A stretch of 60,650 bases of DNA, filler included, from Thelocarpon superellum (lineage: Eukaryota), in assembly GCA_026025795.1 (NCBI GenBank). It is 4 parts of 4 records of this genome, joined end to end, with 100 filler letters (N's around TTAATTAATTAA, not from the genome) between each part and the next. Parts side by side here need not be neighbours in the genome. Positions count along the whole stretch, not along the records: positions 15,229 to 30,307 come from JAPEUG010000415.1; 3 more parts are not named here. One strand, written 5' to 3'. Below, in pieces: positions 21,945-31,160 of this stretch. The notes under the pieces are model-generated. The model did no database searches and had not been told where the DNA came from. It saw only the letters and a list, made by a program, of their open reading frames with translations. Within the stretch, counting starts at the first letter, position 1, and each line of letters begins with the position of its first letter. The position numbers and the translations under genes were made by a program.

Positions 21945-24900
21945 TTACCGCCGGAGAGTACCCATTTTCGAAACCGGCTGCACGGTGGTTGGCATCGCCC
22001 CGTGAAACCGTGCGCGTTCTATGCCGATGACTCATGATTAGATGTGATCGTACGCATGGGGAGGAATCTGCGCACCAGCCTCGCTATCAAAAGCGATATG
22101 AATGTCGTCGTGCTCGCTTGGGTACTCGGGCATGTCCAAGCATACGAATGCTTGGCTCTCCGATTCCTCGCCTTTGGGGAGGGCAAACTTGGCGTCGACG
22201 AGCCGCGTCATGTATTTGCCAGACTTGGTGAACGACTCGTAGAAGTCGGTGCTCTTGAGCTGGAAGTTCATACACTTCCCATGGCTAAAATCCTCGAAGA
22301 AGACCACTAATTGCCAGACGCGGTCTTGCCGGACGATCTGCATTCGCACGAGGTTGCACTCCCATTTCTTGTGCATCGACACGAGCATCATCCGACGAGA
22401 GATGGCGAAAGTAGAGGCCCGACTGAAGGCCCACATGTTAGCGGTCAGAGCATCATTTCGGCGAGTCGACCCATACCCGTCAAATAGCACCGAAAAGCCC
22501 ATCACCGCCTCTTGGAATCGGTGGAGGTCTGGAAGACGGCCCCAACGTTAGCAGGTGAGCGTCGCCTGGAACCCGTGTGAGGCAAGGGGGGCGATTCATC
22601 CTACCTTCCATGGATGGAAACGAGAACGTCCGGACCGATTCCGAGCTCTTCAACGTTCGAAGAAGCTCATTCAATGCGTCAGGGACGTTGTCAGTGCGAG
22701 GAGTTTCCGCCACAGAGATCGTCATATCCTCCTGCGCAGCCCGAAGGAGGGCGATGGTTGCGGAGGTATCCGCGCCTAGACAGAATTGAAGTTGCCCAGG
22801 GCCGAGATTCACTCGATCCGTCGCGTTCCCGCTCCGGGATTCCAAGCAGATGCGCAGTGATTCGGACAAGACCGTCGGCGCAGAGCGGTGATCCGGATCA
22901 TCTGGGTCCCGATTAATGATCCGGACTCGGTCCCACCCGAGCTCGCTCATGACATCCCGGCTTGGCGCTGACGAGGTCTCCGTCGGGGGGTGCGGTCGAA
23001 TGGATAAACTCTTCAGCCGCACGTCCGCGACGACGCTTTCGTGCGACTTGGCCGTCGTGCCATTCAGGGTCGACAGGAGTTGCGCGCGTGCCGCAGCTTC
23101 CTGGAAGGAAAAGACCATAGAGTACCGTCCTCGATCGTCGCGGATCTTGAGCATGAGCGCTGGATCACCTCCCGCCCCCCGGAGGATGCTGTATATGAGG
23201 GGGTGTTGTTTGCCGAGCTCGTAGCTGACGCTGCTGAGGATCTTGGTCTGCGGGCCGGTGAAGACCATCATCCGGTATCCACGATGCAGTCGCCGCACCC
23301 CGGTACCCTCCGATCGTGTGATTTGCTTCTCGAAGATCTGGACAATGCATTGGCTTACCGCCTCCTTGGGGAAGGGCATCGCCCTCCCCCCAGCATCGAG
23401 GAAATGGAACACTTTGACCTGGTCATTCAGCACGACCATCTCGTCATGCAGCGGCAGGACGTTGGCGAGGAATTGCTGCGTGTGGTCATAGAAATCCCAC
23501 AGCTTCATGAAATCACGCTCCTTGAACCGCAGCATGAGCGAAAAGCCGCGCCCCAGCTTCACCACCACCTGGCCGTTTCTCTTGTTCCACTGTACCTCCT
23601 CCCACGTCGGGCCCCGCTTCCAATTCGACTGCACATAGACGCGGACGAGCCCATTTTGGCTCGCGATGGCCATGCCAATCTGCCGATCCGCACGCTCGCG
23701 CGTCATGGACACCACGCACGCCATGCGGTATTCCTGCGACGCATGGCCTTCATCGTACAGAAAGGCGTCCGCAAAGATGCGCCCGTAATTGAATCTCCAA
23801 TCCGAGTCACGGATGGGCATGATTTCCTTGGGGTCCATGAACGCGTCCGAGGGAAGATCAATCAATTGCTTGGAGGATTTCCCCGAGAGCGCACGACAAA
23901 CGTCGGGCGCGAAGCTGGGGTATGTCATCCAGATGCTCGAGTCCAGTCCCTGGGCTAACAGGATTTGGCCCGAGGCAGGTGGTAGGAACCCGTTCTTCTG
24001 CATCGATGTCGCCAACATCCGGAGGTGTCCCAGGACCTCTTGGCTGATCTCAATCAAAGCCGCCACCTGGTCGTGTCCATCGAGCTTGGCCGCGCTGATG
24101 CATGCCGCGAGATCGCGCGTCCCGTACGCCGTTAGTTCAGGGTGCGCCAGTAGTACTTCTTCCACAATCCACCATGACTTGGCGAGATCCACAAACGCTT
24201 GTTCCGGTGGCTGTGGCGGTGACGAAGGGGGTTGCCCTCGCTCGGAACGTGTCGGGCGTTGGCGAATGGCGATCTCAAGCTCAGCGCGACCTTTTAGAAA
24301 CCACCAGTGCGCGGCCAGGACCCATTCTTGGAGCGTCGGCCGTCCCACACGACGTCCTGCTTCCGATGATAGCTGAAAGATTTTGCTTAGGTGCTGGACT
24401 CGGCTGATGAAGGTATCGAATGCGTCCAGGTCCGCCATGGAAGAGTCACTCCGAAACGGCGATAAGGGTGGCCGGGCAGTGGGCGCGTCCTGGAAGGATG
24501 CGTTTAGCAAACGCGGGGACCCTTTGTCAGGCACGGCTGGGGCTTTTTCGGACATGGATGGGCCCTTGTCCGGAACGGAAGGCCTCATATCTGCTTCGGT
24601 GGGGGCGACGTATTTGGAGAAAGCGGAGCTCCATTGCGGAGGGGGCGAATACGAGCTAGCGGAGCTGTCGGATGTTTGGCTCGACGGTCGGATGAGTGGA
24701 GTGATTGCAGGAGCGTTGAAGTCGGTCGCCTGTTGTGCTTCATCCCTCGATGCGTCGGATGCAGCCTCTGGCGCATGCGAGGGATGCCCTCGGCTCGGTG
24801 GCGGGGAGAAATCGTCAATGCTCATGGATAAGGCGCGACCCTCTTCCGCTCGCATCTTCGCTTGCGCAGAGGCGATGGACGGTTTGGCAGGAGCAAGTGA

Positions 24901-25614
24901 GTGCGGAGGTAACGTCGGGGCAAGTGAGTGCGGTAACGGGGACGAGGCGAAGTCGTCGGACCGATTCGTGCCCTTGGATGGGACATCTGGGGGGTGAGCG
25001 TATCCGAGCTGGAGCGCTGGAGGGATTGTGTCGTTGCTGGATCCATACCGGCCCAGTTGCGGCCTTGTCGGCGGCGAATGGGAGCGGGCCCGGGATCGCT
25101 TGACGTCTCGCGACGGCCATTCGGCATCGTCGCCGCCCTCGCCGATGATCTCGGGTGCGGCGTCGGTGAACCTTACGCAATAGCCCTTCTTATTTCGGAC
25201 GGGGCTGGCGGAGCGATTTCGTGATGGTGTCCGGGAATGGGCAGCGGTTGCGGGGACCGTGCTTGAGCGCCTGATGTCGCTGGCTGAGGGCCAGCGCTGG
25301 GCCTTGGAGATGTCAAGTCGTCCCAGCTGCTGGGCGGGTACGCTGGGCGACGGCTTCCTGGCAGCGGGGCGGAGGAAGTCCATGACATCGTCATTGACGG
25401 CCCCGCCCCCAGCGATGCCCTCAGGTCCTGCGCCGGAGGTGTCATCGGGACGGTTCCCGGTGAAGAGCTTGCCTTTCCAGTGTGCCCGGCTCAGAAATTT
25501 CCGCGAGTTGGCCGTGTTGGCCACTGAAGGACCCTCGTCGTCCATGGCGAGAGTCTGCACTGACATGGGATGCTCGTAAGGCTGCAGCACGTGCGCTGTC
25601 GACTGGCCTCGCAT
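21945..25614 (-). CDS. Large uncharacterised fungal protein (~1150-1200 aa): disordered Pro/Ser N-terminus plus folded C-terminal domains; start uncertain (25614/25566/25545)
   Basis: 1084-aa ORF plus two downstream exons (..FHRFQEAVMGFSVLFDG..LVDAKFALPK..CLDMPEYPSEHDDIHIAFDSEA|ERARFHGAMP..RR*) with GT-AG introns and CTAAC/CTAAT branch sites. Confidence 0.8.
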
Positions 25615-26449
25615 CGGTGGCGGTGTTGCATGCCCGGCGCGGTGTACAATGCGGCAGGTCTTCCAGAAATTCGGTACTGTGTACGACGTGACCGCGGGGC
25701 CGTGGTGCTTGGGGTGGAGTGCCCCAGCTTGCACACGAGCGGCGGGACAGGTCAGTAGACGCAGGTCATATCTCGGTTGACGATTGTCACCAAGACGGGT
25801 GTGACGGGGTGGTCATCTAGAAGGAAACATACGACGTGCGGACACGTTGCTGACCGTCTCCCCTAGAGCCTCAAACGTGAAACTAATGAGGTCGTGTGCT
25901 TTCAAGCGGCAGAGCAAACGAGGGGCGCGGCGGATTGTAGGCCAGGTCGAATGTTCCACCTGTGCGATAGTGCTGCTAGTAGTGGTATCGCACAGACCCA
26001 TGTCGCACAGCTACTCGTACCTGTTACTGCGCTGGCCCACTAGAGAGATACTTATCTGTTCCTAAAATACCATCCCAGGCGAGTACGAGCCACGGAAATT
26101 ATGGCTTCGACAAGGGGTCTACGGGAACAGGCGACGCTTGGTCACCTGATCATATGGCACCTATAGTGGTGTTTGGTGAATGACATAATCAGCAGTTGGT
26201 CATTATGAAGGTAAATTTGTGGCAACTGAGTCGTGCTACTACGACCTAGTTGCTACTGACGCACCCCGGTAACTAGACTGGAGATGGGTGGTTTATTCTA
26301 CGGAAGCTATCCGTCGTTCTGGTATACAGCTATTGTGGGTCACGTGTAGTAGCTTAGTCAGAAGCCTCGAGCTCCCGTATGGAGCCTCCACACTACGGAC
26401 GATCACTGTCAACTAACCTCCGGCATAAGTAGCACACGAGTACAACTGA

Positions 26450-26664
26450 TGGGGGCTCCTCCGTTGACTAAGTAGGGATAAGCCGGGTTCTCTCATTGAC
26501 TTGGTGCAGATAACAAGGGTTCCCCCATTTACGCAGGGCAAATAATGGGAGCTTCTCTGTTTACTTAGAGCAGATGATGGGAGTTCTCCCATTAAATTAG
26601 AGTAGAGTACGGAAGCTCCCCCAGACATTGAGTGCAGCCGATCAGGTCTCCCCTAAACACTGAG
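26450..26664. repeat. Degenerate tandem array with exact 32-bp period (6 units plus a partial 7th)
   Basis: Units start at 26450, 26482, 26514, 26546, 26578, 26610 and 26642. Consensus is approximately TGGGRGYTCYCCCATTNACTTAGWGCAGATAA. Confidence 0.8.
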
Positions 26665-26710
26665 CCTTGCCCCATTGCCATTGGCACTCCTGGATCAGTG
26701 GCCGTGACCG

Positions 26711-26763
26711 GTGTTGGCAGACCAGCCAGGTCCCTGCTAGGGACCTGGCTGGTCTGCCAACAC
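26711..26763. repeat. Perfect 25-bp inverted repeat with 3-nt loop (53-bp hairpin)
   Basis: GTGTTGGCAGACCAGCCAGGTCCCT-gct-AGGGACCTGGCTGGTCTGCCAACAC. Confidence 0.97.
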
Positions 26764-26856
26764 ACGACGACAGGTGCTCCATAATCAGGCGACCAAGACG
26801 TTGCCTATTCCCGTAGACCCTTTGTCGAAGCCATCATACGAAAAGGGTTTGTTAGT

Positions 26857-28056
26857 AGTAGACCCTTTTCGTATAGCAGTCATCACGAGCGGAGCCAGAA
26901 GTCCTGCCACAAGACCCATGTGGCCAATTGTGGCTCAGCTGGCCTGCGATGCCAACGACGTTAAGATCATCGTCGAGAAGAGGGAGAATTTAGGGAGCAA
27001 TGGATGATCTTGATTGATCCAGGTGACCTTCTTGTCTCGCCGCGCCGATGCCGCCCGAAGCACACGCTGAACGGTGAGTCCCACCATCGCACCGCCCCGC
27101 TAGGCATAGATCAAGAGGAGCTTGATTGGGCATACTGGATTGAGCGAAGGGCTGCTGTAATGCTCCAGGAGAACGACTTGGTCGACATTTGTCATCCCTA
27201 CATCAATTACTTAGGTCCGGCATGCGATAAATTGTGCACAGCACTCACTTGCGGCCCTTCATGGACCGCAATGTCACCTGTACCACCAAGTGCTCGACAG
27301 ACTGGCCCTTCTCCAATCTCATGTCGACATCCTGCCAGATCATGAACTCTTCGCCGAAACAATGGTTGGCGCGCGCAATGTCACCACACCTGCAATTTGA
27401 TGCAGATACTAGCACAACAGACAGCAGCTGTGCCATGTGCACATCCCACGTCCGACAATCATTGACGAGGCTGTCATTCAGCCAAGACCTTGCCAGCTTC
27501 TCGAGCATGGTATGTCCAGCCCACTGGGACTTCCGCCAGTAGCCCTTGAAGAGCTTCTTCTCCTTTCGAAGCTGATCAAGAGCAGTGTCGGTTCGAATCG
27601 CGTGGTGGCGCGAGAGGTTGAGTTCCGCATAGTCAAACTTGAGTGGCTCGATCGCGGCTCGGGTTCCATTGAAGACGGTGCGGTATGACGGGACTGGCTT
27701 GTCTCGCTGTAGAGGCTTGACGTGGCTCGTGATGACCGTCGCGAATCTTTCATTCACCTCCCCGGTGGGAGCTCGTTCCATTTATGCATGATGTGAGCTA
27801 GAAAGAGACGGAATAGGAAGATCACATACTGGAAGCCAGCAACCTCTCGGTGTTTGTTAAACTGTGTCTTCCATAAGGCCCGGGCATAAACCGAGGTCGG
27901 TGCGCCTTCGGTAATCTGAAGGTGCTTTAAAACCTTGGATGCGATCCTGTCGGCCAGGGCGTTCTGTCATAGCCAGAATCCGCTAAACCCCGCATCTCAG
28001 TATAGGGGGAGAGGGTATAGGTCGAGGTCCTCGTCGGATGAACTGAAGTCCTCCAT
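26857..28056 (-). pseudogene. Degenerate spliced tyrosine-recombinase-like gene (fungal YR, resembling DUF3435/Crypton types)
   Basis: Three exons: MEDFSSSDED..ARALWKTQFNKHR | ..LLSVVLVSASNCRCGDIAR..FMIWQDVDMRL..LVVQVTLRSMKGRK | ..CPIKLLLIYA*RGG..RRDKKVTWINQDHPLLP..MGLVAGLLAPLVMTAIRKGS. This shows the R-x-G, W-x-D-V, K-G, CP and xxIRxG order of YR catalytic domains. It carries in-frame stops, a frameshift and a dead acceptor (CATAA). Confidence 0.7.
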
Positions 28057-29068
28057 CTGAGCCTGGGAATTGGTGAGAAGACGTTAAGCGGAGAGTCAAA
28101 GATAAAAGGTGAGAGGAAGCAAAGGGTGGGCAGAGAGAGGGAGGATATAGAGGGGGACTCAGAAATGACTGGACGTGGCAGTCAAGTCAAAGCTGGCGAA
28201 TAGAGGTCTACACCACCACGAGAGCGAACAAGAAGCACTCCCGTCAATTCCAATGCTGCAAGATGGTCTATTATGGAGCACTCCCGCTAAGAAGCAAAGC
28301 AAAGCGGTCGAAGGACCATACCGATAGGGCTGTGCATACTCCGAGCCACAGCCTCGCTAACCAAAATACAGGTGCCTCGTGAGCCAATCGAGAGACGTGG
28401 TCCATCTCCCCACAAGCCATCCACTGCCTCCAGCGTTGCCCGGACGGTCCAGCGGTCAGGATCTCTGACAGTCCACAGGTAACGTCACACTTCGAACCGT
28501 GGCTGGATGGCTTCTAGCAGTCTGGCGCGCAACCCGACACACCCGACGCGGTCTGATTCTCCAAGACTGACGCCCAGTTCCTCGACCCAATTTCAGCGGC
28601 TTGGCGCGTCGGCTTGGCGACGGTTCGGGAGTGAGCCAATCTGCGCCACAGCTGTACAAGGCGGACCGCAGATCCTCACCACAGCCCACCCAAGCAGCGA
28701 TACTTTGCTTCCTATTGGCGAACCGGGTCCACAGCCTGCGGCACAGGGAATACACCCCGGTACCGCCCCCACCAACTGTCCCTTGGTCATGGCGTTTGAT
28801 GGGGCATGCCGATGCGCTTTCAGAGACCAGACTCCGTACAAATGCTGGCGCAAACTCCCTGTCCGTGGCGATTGTCGCGCGTCGCTCGTCCCTCCCGTCC
28901 ACCACTTTGCAACTCCATCGTCGCACAAAGCGAACTGCGCTTCGAACTCTCCAACCTTTTTGGGCTCTACGTCCAATCGTCGCGTGAACGATCACGCCTA
29001 GAGGTACTCTCCTCACATTGAGCCGCGTCGCTCGGCCTCTCTTGGCCGCCATCGGAATCTGAAGTAAA

Positions 29069-30091
29069 ATGGCTTCTACCTTACTGCGACCGCGTCATCT
29101 CATCCCCCTCCTCCCAGTAGTCCTCTCGATACTTCAGCCCGCGACCGCGGCCGACGACACCTGCTACTGGCCCTCTGGATCCGTGGCTGAAGCGTTCAAC
29201 CCATGCAACGATGCCGGAAGTGGCTCGACAGTACGGTCATGCTGCCAGCATCAGGAGATATGTCTCTCCAACGGTCTCTGCTTCAGTCCCACCATTGGGA
29301 ATGTCTATCGCGGAGGATGTACGGATCGCACATGGCAGGACGATGGGTGCCCCAACCTTTTCACAACTGGTATGCATCCTCCGCTCTCCCACGTTCGTGG
29401 CCGAATCGACGAGCTCTTTCCTGACACCCCTTCGCTCCGTGTAATAGTTCACCCCAATGGCACGGCCAACATGAACAACTGCCTCTTCACCAACAAGTTT
29501 CAAGTTGACGTCGGATCGTGTTCCGATAGCGACGTCTACCACTGGAACGCCGCCCAGGCCATCGGCCCCTATCCGAGTGGCTCCAGCTCCTCTTCATCCT
29601 CGACCTCATCACCATCATCTGCTACTGCGACCTCCGCGTCCTCCAGCTCCGCCTCTGCCACAGCCGCGGACGCAGACTCTACCGTAAGCTCCATCTGTCC
29701 CGACGTCACGAGCGCCAAGCGGGATGTGGGACTCGCCGCGGGCCTCGGCCTCGGCATCCCACTTCTCTTGCTCGCCGCTGCGCTGGCGTACCTGTGGCAA
29801 TCGGAGCGACGGACACGACAGCAACTCTCCTCCCAACTCTCCTCACACCTGTCGCAACATCCCCCGTCGATGGTCCAGGCCCAGTACCCGCCGGCAGACG
29901 GACAATACGCGGGCTCAACTGGAACCTCCAAAGCGCTCTATTCCCCGCTTCCGCCACAAGATGGCCAGGCCTCCAACACCCATGAAATGCAGGCCGAATA
30001 CAACCCTGGCAACGAGCAGCCGAGTTTACTGGGATCGGAGCTGGATGGCACGCAGTCAAGTCGACCGAGCTTCAGGATCGGTGGTGCATGA
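29069..30091 (+). CDS. Single-pass membrane protein: signal peptide, Cys-rich ectodomain, Ser/Thr stalk, TM, Pro/Gln tail (Mid2/SKG6-like architecture); in-frame 78-nt intron 29370-29447
   Basis: CYWPSG..PC..CCQHQEICLSNGLC..YRGGCTDRTWQDDGCP, a poly-Ser stalk, and TM segment VGLAAGLGLGIPLLLLAAALAYLW. Confidence 0.85.
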   Translation: MASTLLRPRHLIPLLPVVLSILQPATAADDTCYWPSGSVAEAFNPCNDAGSGSTVRSCCQHQEICLSNGLCFSPTIGNVYRGGCTDRTWQDDGCPNLFTTGMHPPLSHVRGRIDELFPDTPSLRVIVHPNGTANMNNCLFTNKFQVDVGSCSDSDVYHWNAAQAIGPYPSGSSSSSSSTSSPSSATATSASSSSASATAADADSTVSSICPDVTSAKRDVGLAAGLGLGIPLLLLAAALAYLWQSERRTRQQLSSQLSSHLSQHPPSMVQAQYPPADGQYAGSTGTSKALYSPLPPQDGQASNTHEMQAEYNPGNEQPSLLGSELDGTQSSRPSFRIGGA

Positions 30092-30307
30092 AACAACGTC
30101 CGTCGTCCGAGTTCTCTCCAGTTCGATTCCGATTCCAGTACATCATGAAGCGGCATGGCGCCCTCGATGCATATTCGGTATGCTCCGGGCTCCGACTTGG
30201 GCGTTCTCGGGTGAAGGCTACGTAATGGATACACGCAGGCTCTGCCGCGGGCGCTGGCGCAGTTGATGCTCGTACGGCCGATCAAAGCTTGATGAGGTGT
30301 CCATTGT

Positions 30308-30407
30308 NNNNNNNNNNNNNNNNNNNNNNNNNNNNNNNNNNNNNNNNNNNNTTAATTAATTAANNNNNNNNNNNNNNNNNNNNNNNNNNNNNNNNNNNNN
30401 NNNNNNN
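30308..30407. other. Artificial contig linker
   Basis: 44 N + TTAATTAATTAA + 44 N. Confidence 0.98.
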
Positions 30408-31160
30408 TGAAAGACCCGCATGGACCCCGTCAGGAAGAATCATGTGTGGAGATGGTGGGTCGCGCACTGTCAGTGTCAGAATACTCGCTCTACGATGTAT
30501 CGCGCATTGCAACACATGGAATTGCCTGTCACTTAGGCTAGATGAAACCCTGATAGAGCTTGCCAGCAAGCTGTCAGCAAGCTGTCTCTCTACAGATGCG
30601 TTAGGTCTGCAGCATTGGGTACAGCCGAGTCATTGTCTCACATCTGCCGAGATTGAGACTGTCGCCAGTAGAGACTTGTACAGCAACGCAATGAATCAAG
30701 AGCGCTCCACACCACCTGCTCAGCCAACAGGGGCCCCCAAGCCGGCCTGCGTGGATCCACTGGTGCCAGAGCTGGATAGCCGAGGTCTTGGAAGGTACGC
30801 CGACTCTCTTACACCGGTTGTGATGCCTTTAATGTCTGCGATGGTAGATGCGTGCCGCGTCGCATTCGCTATACTACACTATAGCTATGTCACGGGGTCA
30901 CCTGACTGTACAGTCAGGTGACCATGGATTAGCCTGGGTATATCCCACCGTAGGCTACCTGGCTAGAAAAACAATCAACTCATAACATCATGCCGAAGGC
31001 ATAACAAGCTACTACACGATGCTATGCAGAGTCTCTCCTCTCCGTCTTCGTGTTGCTTTCACGCACATCAAGCGAGAGGACCCGTATTCCGATCTGATAC
31101 AGATACACGTGGCAGCCGGACGGCATACTGTACAGTGAGCAACGACGACGGACCTCTGCG

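Follow-up and report, generated by a model that had tools for sequence, protein, structure and literature searches.

The locus described here lies in a 60,650-nucleotide stretch of DNA from Thelocarpon superellum (assembly GCA_026025795.1), which is made up of four joined parts and is called the window below; all coordinates count along it. Within the window, a 3.4-kb spacer separates two divergently oriented host genes, one on the minus strand with DUF7611/7612/7613 domains (22480-25614) and one on the plus strand without an assigned family (29069-30091). Two adjoining features lie in this spacer: the relic of a minus-strand gene for a tyrosine recombinase (YR), recognizable from 28056 to 26860, and a 740-bp non-coding module (26098-26837) with inverted ends and several further repeats. 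An earlier, sequence-only reading had listed these features and had proposed that gene and module belong to one YR element; every feature that it listed is present in the sequence between 25500 and 29200. We favour, with a probability of about 60%, a plainer account, in which two unrelated pieces of dead DNA, a truncated captain-like YR relic and a decayed module, lie side by side as ordinary debris. Their adjacency would then be positional and not functional.

The arrangement in the sequencing data

The contigs of four public sequencing runs, one source-like (X1) and three from moss metagenomes of an independent study (X2-X4), were compared with 25000-29600. The left module junction is spanned by contigs of X2 (26004-26324) and X3 (26004-26376), and the right junction by a contig of X4 (26802-26952), all of which differ from the window at 0-2 positions. 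Furthermore, parts of the YR relic are carried with the same sequence by contigs of the independent metagenome runs. A high-copy repeat and palindromes such as those in the module can mislead assemblers, but because independent contigs bridge both junctions, the order of module and relic is real and shared, and an assembly artefact or chimera that joined unrelated sequences is hardly credible. No empty-site joints were seen in the four runs over the compared interval, where the stretches left uncovered in X2-X4 carry no weight.

A dead and truncated recombinase gene

A profile hidden Markov model built from 29 full-length relatives (alignment A1) was used, with all filters disabled, to search the window in its six translated frames. 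It matched three blocks and no more, each of them on the minus strand, between 28056 and 26860. Block 1 (28056-27844, frame -2; profile positions 4-75, E = 4e-8) carries the N-terminus, which starts MEDFSSSD. Block 2 (27784-27242, frame -1; positions 81-262, E = 9e-58) comprises the core-binding domain and runs into the beginning of the catalytic one, and includes an open frame of 178 amino acids (27245-27781). Block 3 (27192-26860, frame -2; positions 263-375, E = 1e-24) completes the relic, which spans positions 4-375 of the 902 in the profile only; positions 376-902 had no match in any frame across the window.

The blocks are separated by intron-like gaps. Between blocks 1 and 2, a GTATGT at 27829 coincides with a change of frame, and the gap between blocks 2 and 3 (27193-27241, minus strand), where the reading frame changes too, has GTGAGT from 27248 and TAG at 27200-27198. 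Many relatives that were called in databases as single open reading frames (ORFs) stop exactly at this second gap, and the shared end-points of these matches suggest that it is a putative conserved intron.

The gene is dead. Block 1 contains two in-frame TGA stops (27999-27997 and 27969-27967), and block 3 contains a TAG (27102-27100) and a TGA (26937-26935). The catalytic set R-K-H-R-H/W-Y is incomplete: Arg-I is kept within CRCGDI (27394-27377), the Lys within MKGRK (27262-27248) and Arg-II in AIRKGS (26877-26860), which is the last aligned stretch and the place where homology ends. AIRKGS aligns to the HxLRRG motif of the family, with Thr in place of the His (His-I), and both His-II and the nucleophilic Tyr are lost as well. 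Because it has four in-frame stops, has lost His-I and ends before His-II and the Tyr, the relic cannot act. Three blocks, four stops and homology ending at 26860 agree with what had been read from the sequence, namely a dead minus-strand YR pseudogene whose coding part ends at AIRKGS. When its reading frame was continued into the module, no family homology was found. Dinucleotide indices gave no signature of repeat-induced point mutation (RIP) in the relic, whose composite value (-0.86) is like that of neighbouring genes.

A second, diverged version of about 26904-27031 is present in X1. A single contig represents it (depth 50.8, against 115.7), which carries several substitutions and, behind 26935, an insertion of 2 nt. 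Either a paralogous copy of the YR or a second haplotype could account for it.

Relatives and class of the recombinase

The 178-amino-acid frame matches 417 proteins at E <= 1e-3 in a library of 1.84 billion proteins; a word-based search with the same frame for longer proteins gave no match at E <= 0.001 among 289 candidates. The full-length relatives are ascomycete proteins of 750-1140 amino acids, in which the matched domain lies at about residues 85-265; those with names are hypothetical or 'C2H2-type domain-containing' proteins of Diaporthe, Cudoniella and Alternaria. In A1, R212 is invariant, and little or no variation is seen at K260/K263, R375 (in HxLRRG), H404 (in LGH) and Y417 (in YVG). 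These conserved residues are the tyrosine-recombinase set. In Pfam, nine of the 29 relatives match DUF3435 at E <= 0.01 (best 2.7e-10), with Phage_integrase matched by two and zf-C2H2 by six; among ten relatives scanned singly, the curated DUF3435 cut-off was passed by P0024 alone (26.0 against 25.8 bits). A profile search of the PDB with full-length A1 found, among the matches listed, only zinc-finger proteins, including five-finger GLI at 5.5e-20.

The fold was assessed on a relative, P0009, and not on the relic, by means of an AlphaFold2 model made from A1 (mean pLDDT, the predicted local distance difference test, 73.7; confident over about residues 20-500). Foldseek placed Cre first among PDB structures (E = 1.9e-6; template modelling score, TM, by target 0.59-0.67), followed by IntI, Flp, XerH and XerA. 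Similarly, the nearest entries to residues 1-500 in the ESM Atlas were ascomycete clusters named 'DUF3435 domain-containing protein' (feature score 0.98, structure TM 0.70). The family thus has a Cre-like core-binding and catalytic domain, a long disordered linker and a C-terminal GLI-like C2H2 array, and a role of the zinc fingers in DNA binding or target selection is plausible in intact members. As a sizeable group of ascomycete proteins in which a DUF3435-like recombinase is coupled to such an array, the family may bear on target choice by such elements. Many of its database members are fragments of 120-290 amino acids that end exactly at the putative intron after the KGxK motif, apparently as a result of single-exon gene calls.

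The catalytic residues of A1, the Cre-like fold of the P0009 model and the nearest DUF3435 clusters bear out the YR identity that had been proposed. The relic is best classed with the DUF3435 or Starship-captain-like recombinases, and not with those of CryptonF or DIRS/Ngaro; it is the N-terminal ~40% of such a gene. CryptonF recombinases are combined with a GCR1_C DNA-binding domain. That domain is absent from the 11 Pfam families matched by the 29 relatives, which have C2H2 fingers instead. CryptonF elements are, like the family of the relic, fungal DNA elements that encode a YR, and the available part of one source places them as an outgroup to the captains (PMC11162782). DIRS and Ngaro elements differ in having reverse transcriptase and RNase H beside the YR and split or inverted long terminal repeats, and neither enzyme was found in 46 ORFs scanned across the window (see below) or in the ORFs of the module, which match no family.

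The likeness to Starship captains is closer. The relatives are likewise ascomycete YRs with a Cre-like two-domain fold and the residues R-K-H-R-H-Y, and DUF3435 is their nearest family. Kirc, of the Starship Enterprise, has an extra zinc-finger DNA-binding domain according to the accessible portion of its description (PMC8092012), as the relatives do; however, Kirc combines a central zinc finger with a chromodomain, whereas the relatives carry C-terminal GLI-like C2H2 arrays. Degraded captains are also common: in the part available of a recent survey, 1481 of 4128 putative captains were under 203 amino acids and a further 1139 were counted as pseudogenes (10.1101/2025.11.25.690456). A complete Starship captain, on the other hand, is the first gene of a large cargo element with direct repeats and, in some cases, inverted repeats, whereas the relic is a 375-position fragment around which neither cargo genes nor a pair of direct or inverted repeats was found.

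Anatomy of the adjoining module

The module begins and ends with inverted repeats at 26098-26176 and 26757-26837, which pair with one another. Without gaps, the outer 39 nt (26098-26136 and 26799-26837) are 90% identical. With gaps, blastn aligns 81 columns at 83% (E = 8e-16), and by a local aligner the arms agree at 69 of 83 columns. The inverted ends are old, because 5 transitions, 3 transversions and 6 gap columns now separate the two arms. Inward of the right end, and overlapping it, lies a perfect palindrome (26711-26763; 25 + 3 + 25 nt, 100% complementary), and further in is a degenerate minisatellite (26449-26672) of seven 32-bp units in exact register. Its identity at a lag of 32 is 0.60, whereas none of 2000 shuffles exceeded 0.405. 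Tandem Repeats Finder did not report the array, as expected for units that are just ~60% alike. A dyad at 26222-26253 (13-6-13, 2 mismatches) abuts the left end of a high-copy repeat described below, and a hairpin with perfect 13-nt arms and a 13-nt loop (26836-26874) lies at the junction with the relic. None of these features has a strand. The sequence-only reading had named all of them, and the array, the 53-bp palindrome and the other hairpins stand as it gave them; its inverted repeats of ~63 bp are there too, but that length was approximate, since they reach ~80 bp with gaps.

Folded as single-stranded DNA, 26098-26880 gives -172 kcal/mol (z = -13.4; 20 shuffles). Foldback-like elements have internal short tandem arrays, and the module would resemble them in its tandem units and its strong fold-back. 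It lacks coding capacity: its eight ORFs match no Pfam family at E <= 1. ARAGORN found no tRNA, and no Rfam family reached its gathering score in the module. Two sub-threshold Rfam matches to the palindrome, the Pseudomonas small RNA P37 (26715-26776; 37.4 bits against a gathering score of 50) and C4 (22.8 against 45 bits), were rejected as spurious, the former as a hairpin match.

In X1, the summed depth of the inverted ends, the array, the palindrome and the relic is about 112-210, which is the level of a single locus (at least 85% likeness). Elsewhere in the window nothing resembles the module, apart from a 31-nt likeness to the end of the gene that is taken up with the breakpoint.

A high-copy repeat nested in the module

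About a fifth of the module (26254-26397, ~144 bp, no strand) is a short dispersed repeat. Summed contig depth in X1 rises to ~19,400 in the bin 26232-26385, against ~115-145 in the adjoining bins, although summed contig depth is not copy number. Up to 44 distinct X1 contigs overlap a single position of the repeat, with many sequence variants, and loose contig ends cluster at 26254/26284 and at 26386-26401, where their continuations agree poorly (0.42-0.47). Because of this extreme depth and the unrelated flanks of the other copies, 26254-26397 is a separate dispersed repeat that is unrelated to the YR. It is over-represented in the moss-metagenome runs as well (85 in X2 and 60 in X3, against about 2-4). 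We found no tRNA, no Rfam match and no obvious inverted ends in it, and its RIP index is 1.71 in a sequence too short to judge. Scans of metagenomes with the inverted-end pattern and with the 144-bp repeat core returned 0 stretches each; the fungus seems to be absent there, and the result is uninformative on copy number.

At 26173-26195, outside these limits, the motif around ATGACATAATCAG recurs beside about 26321-26323 of other copies of the repeat, in both orientations (a joint record in X1 and a loose end in X3). The 144 bp may therefore understate the size or complexity of the repeat family.

The breakpoint between gene and module

The module is most likely a decayed non-autonomous transposon with terminal inverted repeats (TIRs), or similar repeat debris. 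On the account that we favour, it would have arrived independently of the YR gene, and the distal 60% of the gene would have been lost by deletion next to it; the short high-copy repeat would have been inserted later into a module that also carries the minisatellite and the palindrome. A simple insertion does not suffice: because the distal 60% of the gene is neither beyond the module nor elsewhere in the window, either a deletion or an origin as a fragment has to be assumed too. The suggestion, made in passing in the sequence-only reading, that a plain insertion had truncated the gene was incomplete for the same reason.

The breakpoint has an anatomy of its own. One arm of the junction hairpin (26862-26874) equals 13 nt inside the stretch coding for AIRKGS, and its partner lies directly against the right inverted repeat. 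Furthermore, the last 31 nt of the gene align, on the minus strand, with the end of the hairpin arm plus the outer ~29 nt of the right inverted repeat. This alignment includes an exact 11-mer, and its score of 26 was reached by one of 1000 shuffles. It amounts to a diverged direct repeat of sequences about 45 bp apart (26814-26889, minus strand). The likeness of the gene end to the left arm is weaker, in that 51 of 1000 shuffles reach its score. These features point to a mechanistic tie between the breakpoint and the module end. Candidate mechanisms are an insertion into, or an adjacent deletion starting from, a site that resembles the end of the element itself, and template switching in repair.

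The last of these leads to the main rival explanation, which we regard as possible and put forward tentatively: that the module never transposed and is instead a local repair scar. Its inverted ends and the junction hairpin would have been made at the gene break by fold-back priming or template switching, and its interior would have grown later through insertion of the repeat and expansion of the minisatellite. A hairpin arm that repeats 13 nt of the terminal codons of the gene perfectly and in inverted orientation, and an outer right inverted repeat formed by a diverged direct copy of its last 31 nt, are what such a scar would leave, and the single-locus depth of the module in X1 and the lack of a clean target duplication agree with it. 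However, the inverted ends are 17% diverged and the hairpin arms are perfect, which requires at least two events of different age; beyond the 31-nt likeness, the interior of the module has no match in the window; and the right arm does not extend the YR coding sequence. A hairpin taken from a gene's own codons and a 31-nt likeness across the break form a small natural record of how genes of this kind are truncated.

The proposed link between module and recombinase

The remaining question is whether the module belongs to a YR element, as the sequence-only reading had proposed when it took it for the cis-acting end, the recombination-site array or a structured RNA of such an element. On this explanation, the module would be the 3'-terminal or cis-acting region of a Starship- or Crypton-like element made non-autonomous by an internal deletion, with the dyads or the 32-bp units as candidate recombinase sites. 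Its direct adjacency to the relic and the resemblance of the gene end to the outer right inverted repeat speak for it, and the multi-finger DNA-binding domains of the relatives could read a repeated array. The sites of the lox, FRT and dif type consist of inverted arms of 11-13 bp around a spacer of 6-8 bp, and the modelled domain of the relative is structurally like Cre, IntI, Flp, XerH and XerA. A scan of 783 bp for dyads of 13-(6-8)-13 geometry, with up to 3 mismatches, gave four hits at three loci: 26221/26222, the centre of the palindrome and the junction hairpin.

These three loci share the lox-like geometry, but their arms have no sequence in common, none of the seven 32-bp units contains such a dyad, and there is no active recombinase here. 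In addition, the 3-bp centre of the palindrome falls short of the 6-8 bp that make up the crossover spacer in lox, FRT and dif sites. The position of the module is also unfavourable. It sits 3' of the truncated ORF, whereas captains occupy the 5' end of an element and face its interior, and Starship ends, in the portions of the literature at hand, consist of short direct repeats and TIRs 5' of the captain (PMC11162782; 10.1101/2025.11.25.690456), with direct repeats of 4-5 bp and inverted repeats of 10-12 bp (10.1101/2025.11.25.690456). Cryptons, as far as the accessible text of PMC13465315 goes, have no inverted ends, unlike the module with its ~80-bp arms. No repeat pair joins the region upstream of the ATG to the far side of the module: exact 10-mers, direct or inverted, shared between 28057-29062 and 25615-26260 were not found, and repeats as short as 4-6 bp in direct orientation could be recognized only by comparison with an empty site. 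Finally, there are no cargo genes, and an unrelated high-copy repeat lies inside the module.

We therefore consider it unlikely that the module is part of a YR element. The 3' position, the units without a dyad, the nested repeat and the sub-threshold Rfam scores leave the proposed roles without support, and we regard the link as unsupported rather than refuted. Less likely still is a more specific version, in which the zinc-finger DUF3435-like YR family itself would have supplied the element, one made non-autonomous by internal deletion. The module would be its terminal or cis-acting part, and the outer inverted ends would derive from, or have recombined with, the sequence of the gene around the Arg-II motif. 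If true, this would be a type of YR element whose inverted ends are long and whose interior holds an array of 32-bp binding units, a combination that the available parts of the three sources do not describe for Starships or Cryptons (PMC11162782; 10.1101/2025.11.25.690456; PMC13465315).

Several observations weigh against the account of two unrelated pieces of dead DNA. First, a purely independent insertion does not predict the 31-nt likeness or the reuse of AIRKGS codons in the hairpin. Second, the dyad scan gave four hits where 300 shuffles average 0.31, although as many as 4 were reached among the shuffles too. Third, the module is like miniature inverted-repeat transposable elements and other non-autonomous TIR transposons in being small (740 bp) and non-coding with ~80-bp inverted ends, but it differs from them in three respects. 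Its candidate target duplication (ACGGAA at 26092-26097, ACGAAA at 26838-26843) is alike at five of six positions and was chosen by eye; no superfamily could be assigned; and no second copy was found in X1 at a likeness of at least 85%, so that its status as a transposon is unproven. Sister copies could escape this threshold, because the arms of the module are themselves just 83% alike. Fourth, the six ORF pieces of the relic match no Pfam family, and the DUF3435 call leans on the relatives, 20 of which miss DUF3435 at E <= 0.01.

Genomic setting

The families in the window were surveyed in 46 ORFs of at least 170 amino acids, picked from 70 listed; those omitted were mostly overlapping antisense frames. 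They include cyclin, purine-cytosine permease, NPC1, DBR1, TSR2, Ras, TRM5 and similar families. No Starship accessory family (DUF3723, patatin-like phospholipase or NLR, as named in 10.1101/2025.11.25.690456) and no reverse transcriptase or RNase H family was found among these 46 ORFs. The neighbourhood of the relic consists of housekeeping-type genes, without cargo genes.

The best identity of DBR1 to named Pezizomycotina is just 58-60%, and the host therefore belongs to a poorly sampled lineage of this group. For that lineage, the locus adds one more decayed captain-like recombinase fragment, which matters little as such. Just downstream of the gene at 29069-30091, the sequence has a sharp AT-rich dip at 30200-30650, where GC content falls to 0.38-0.42 against ~0.59 elsewhere.

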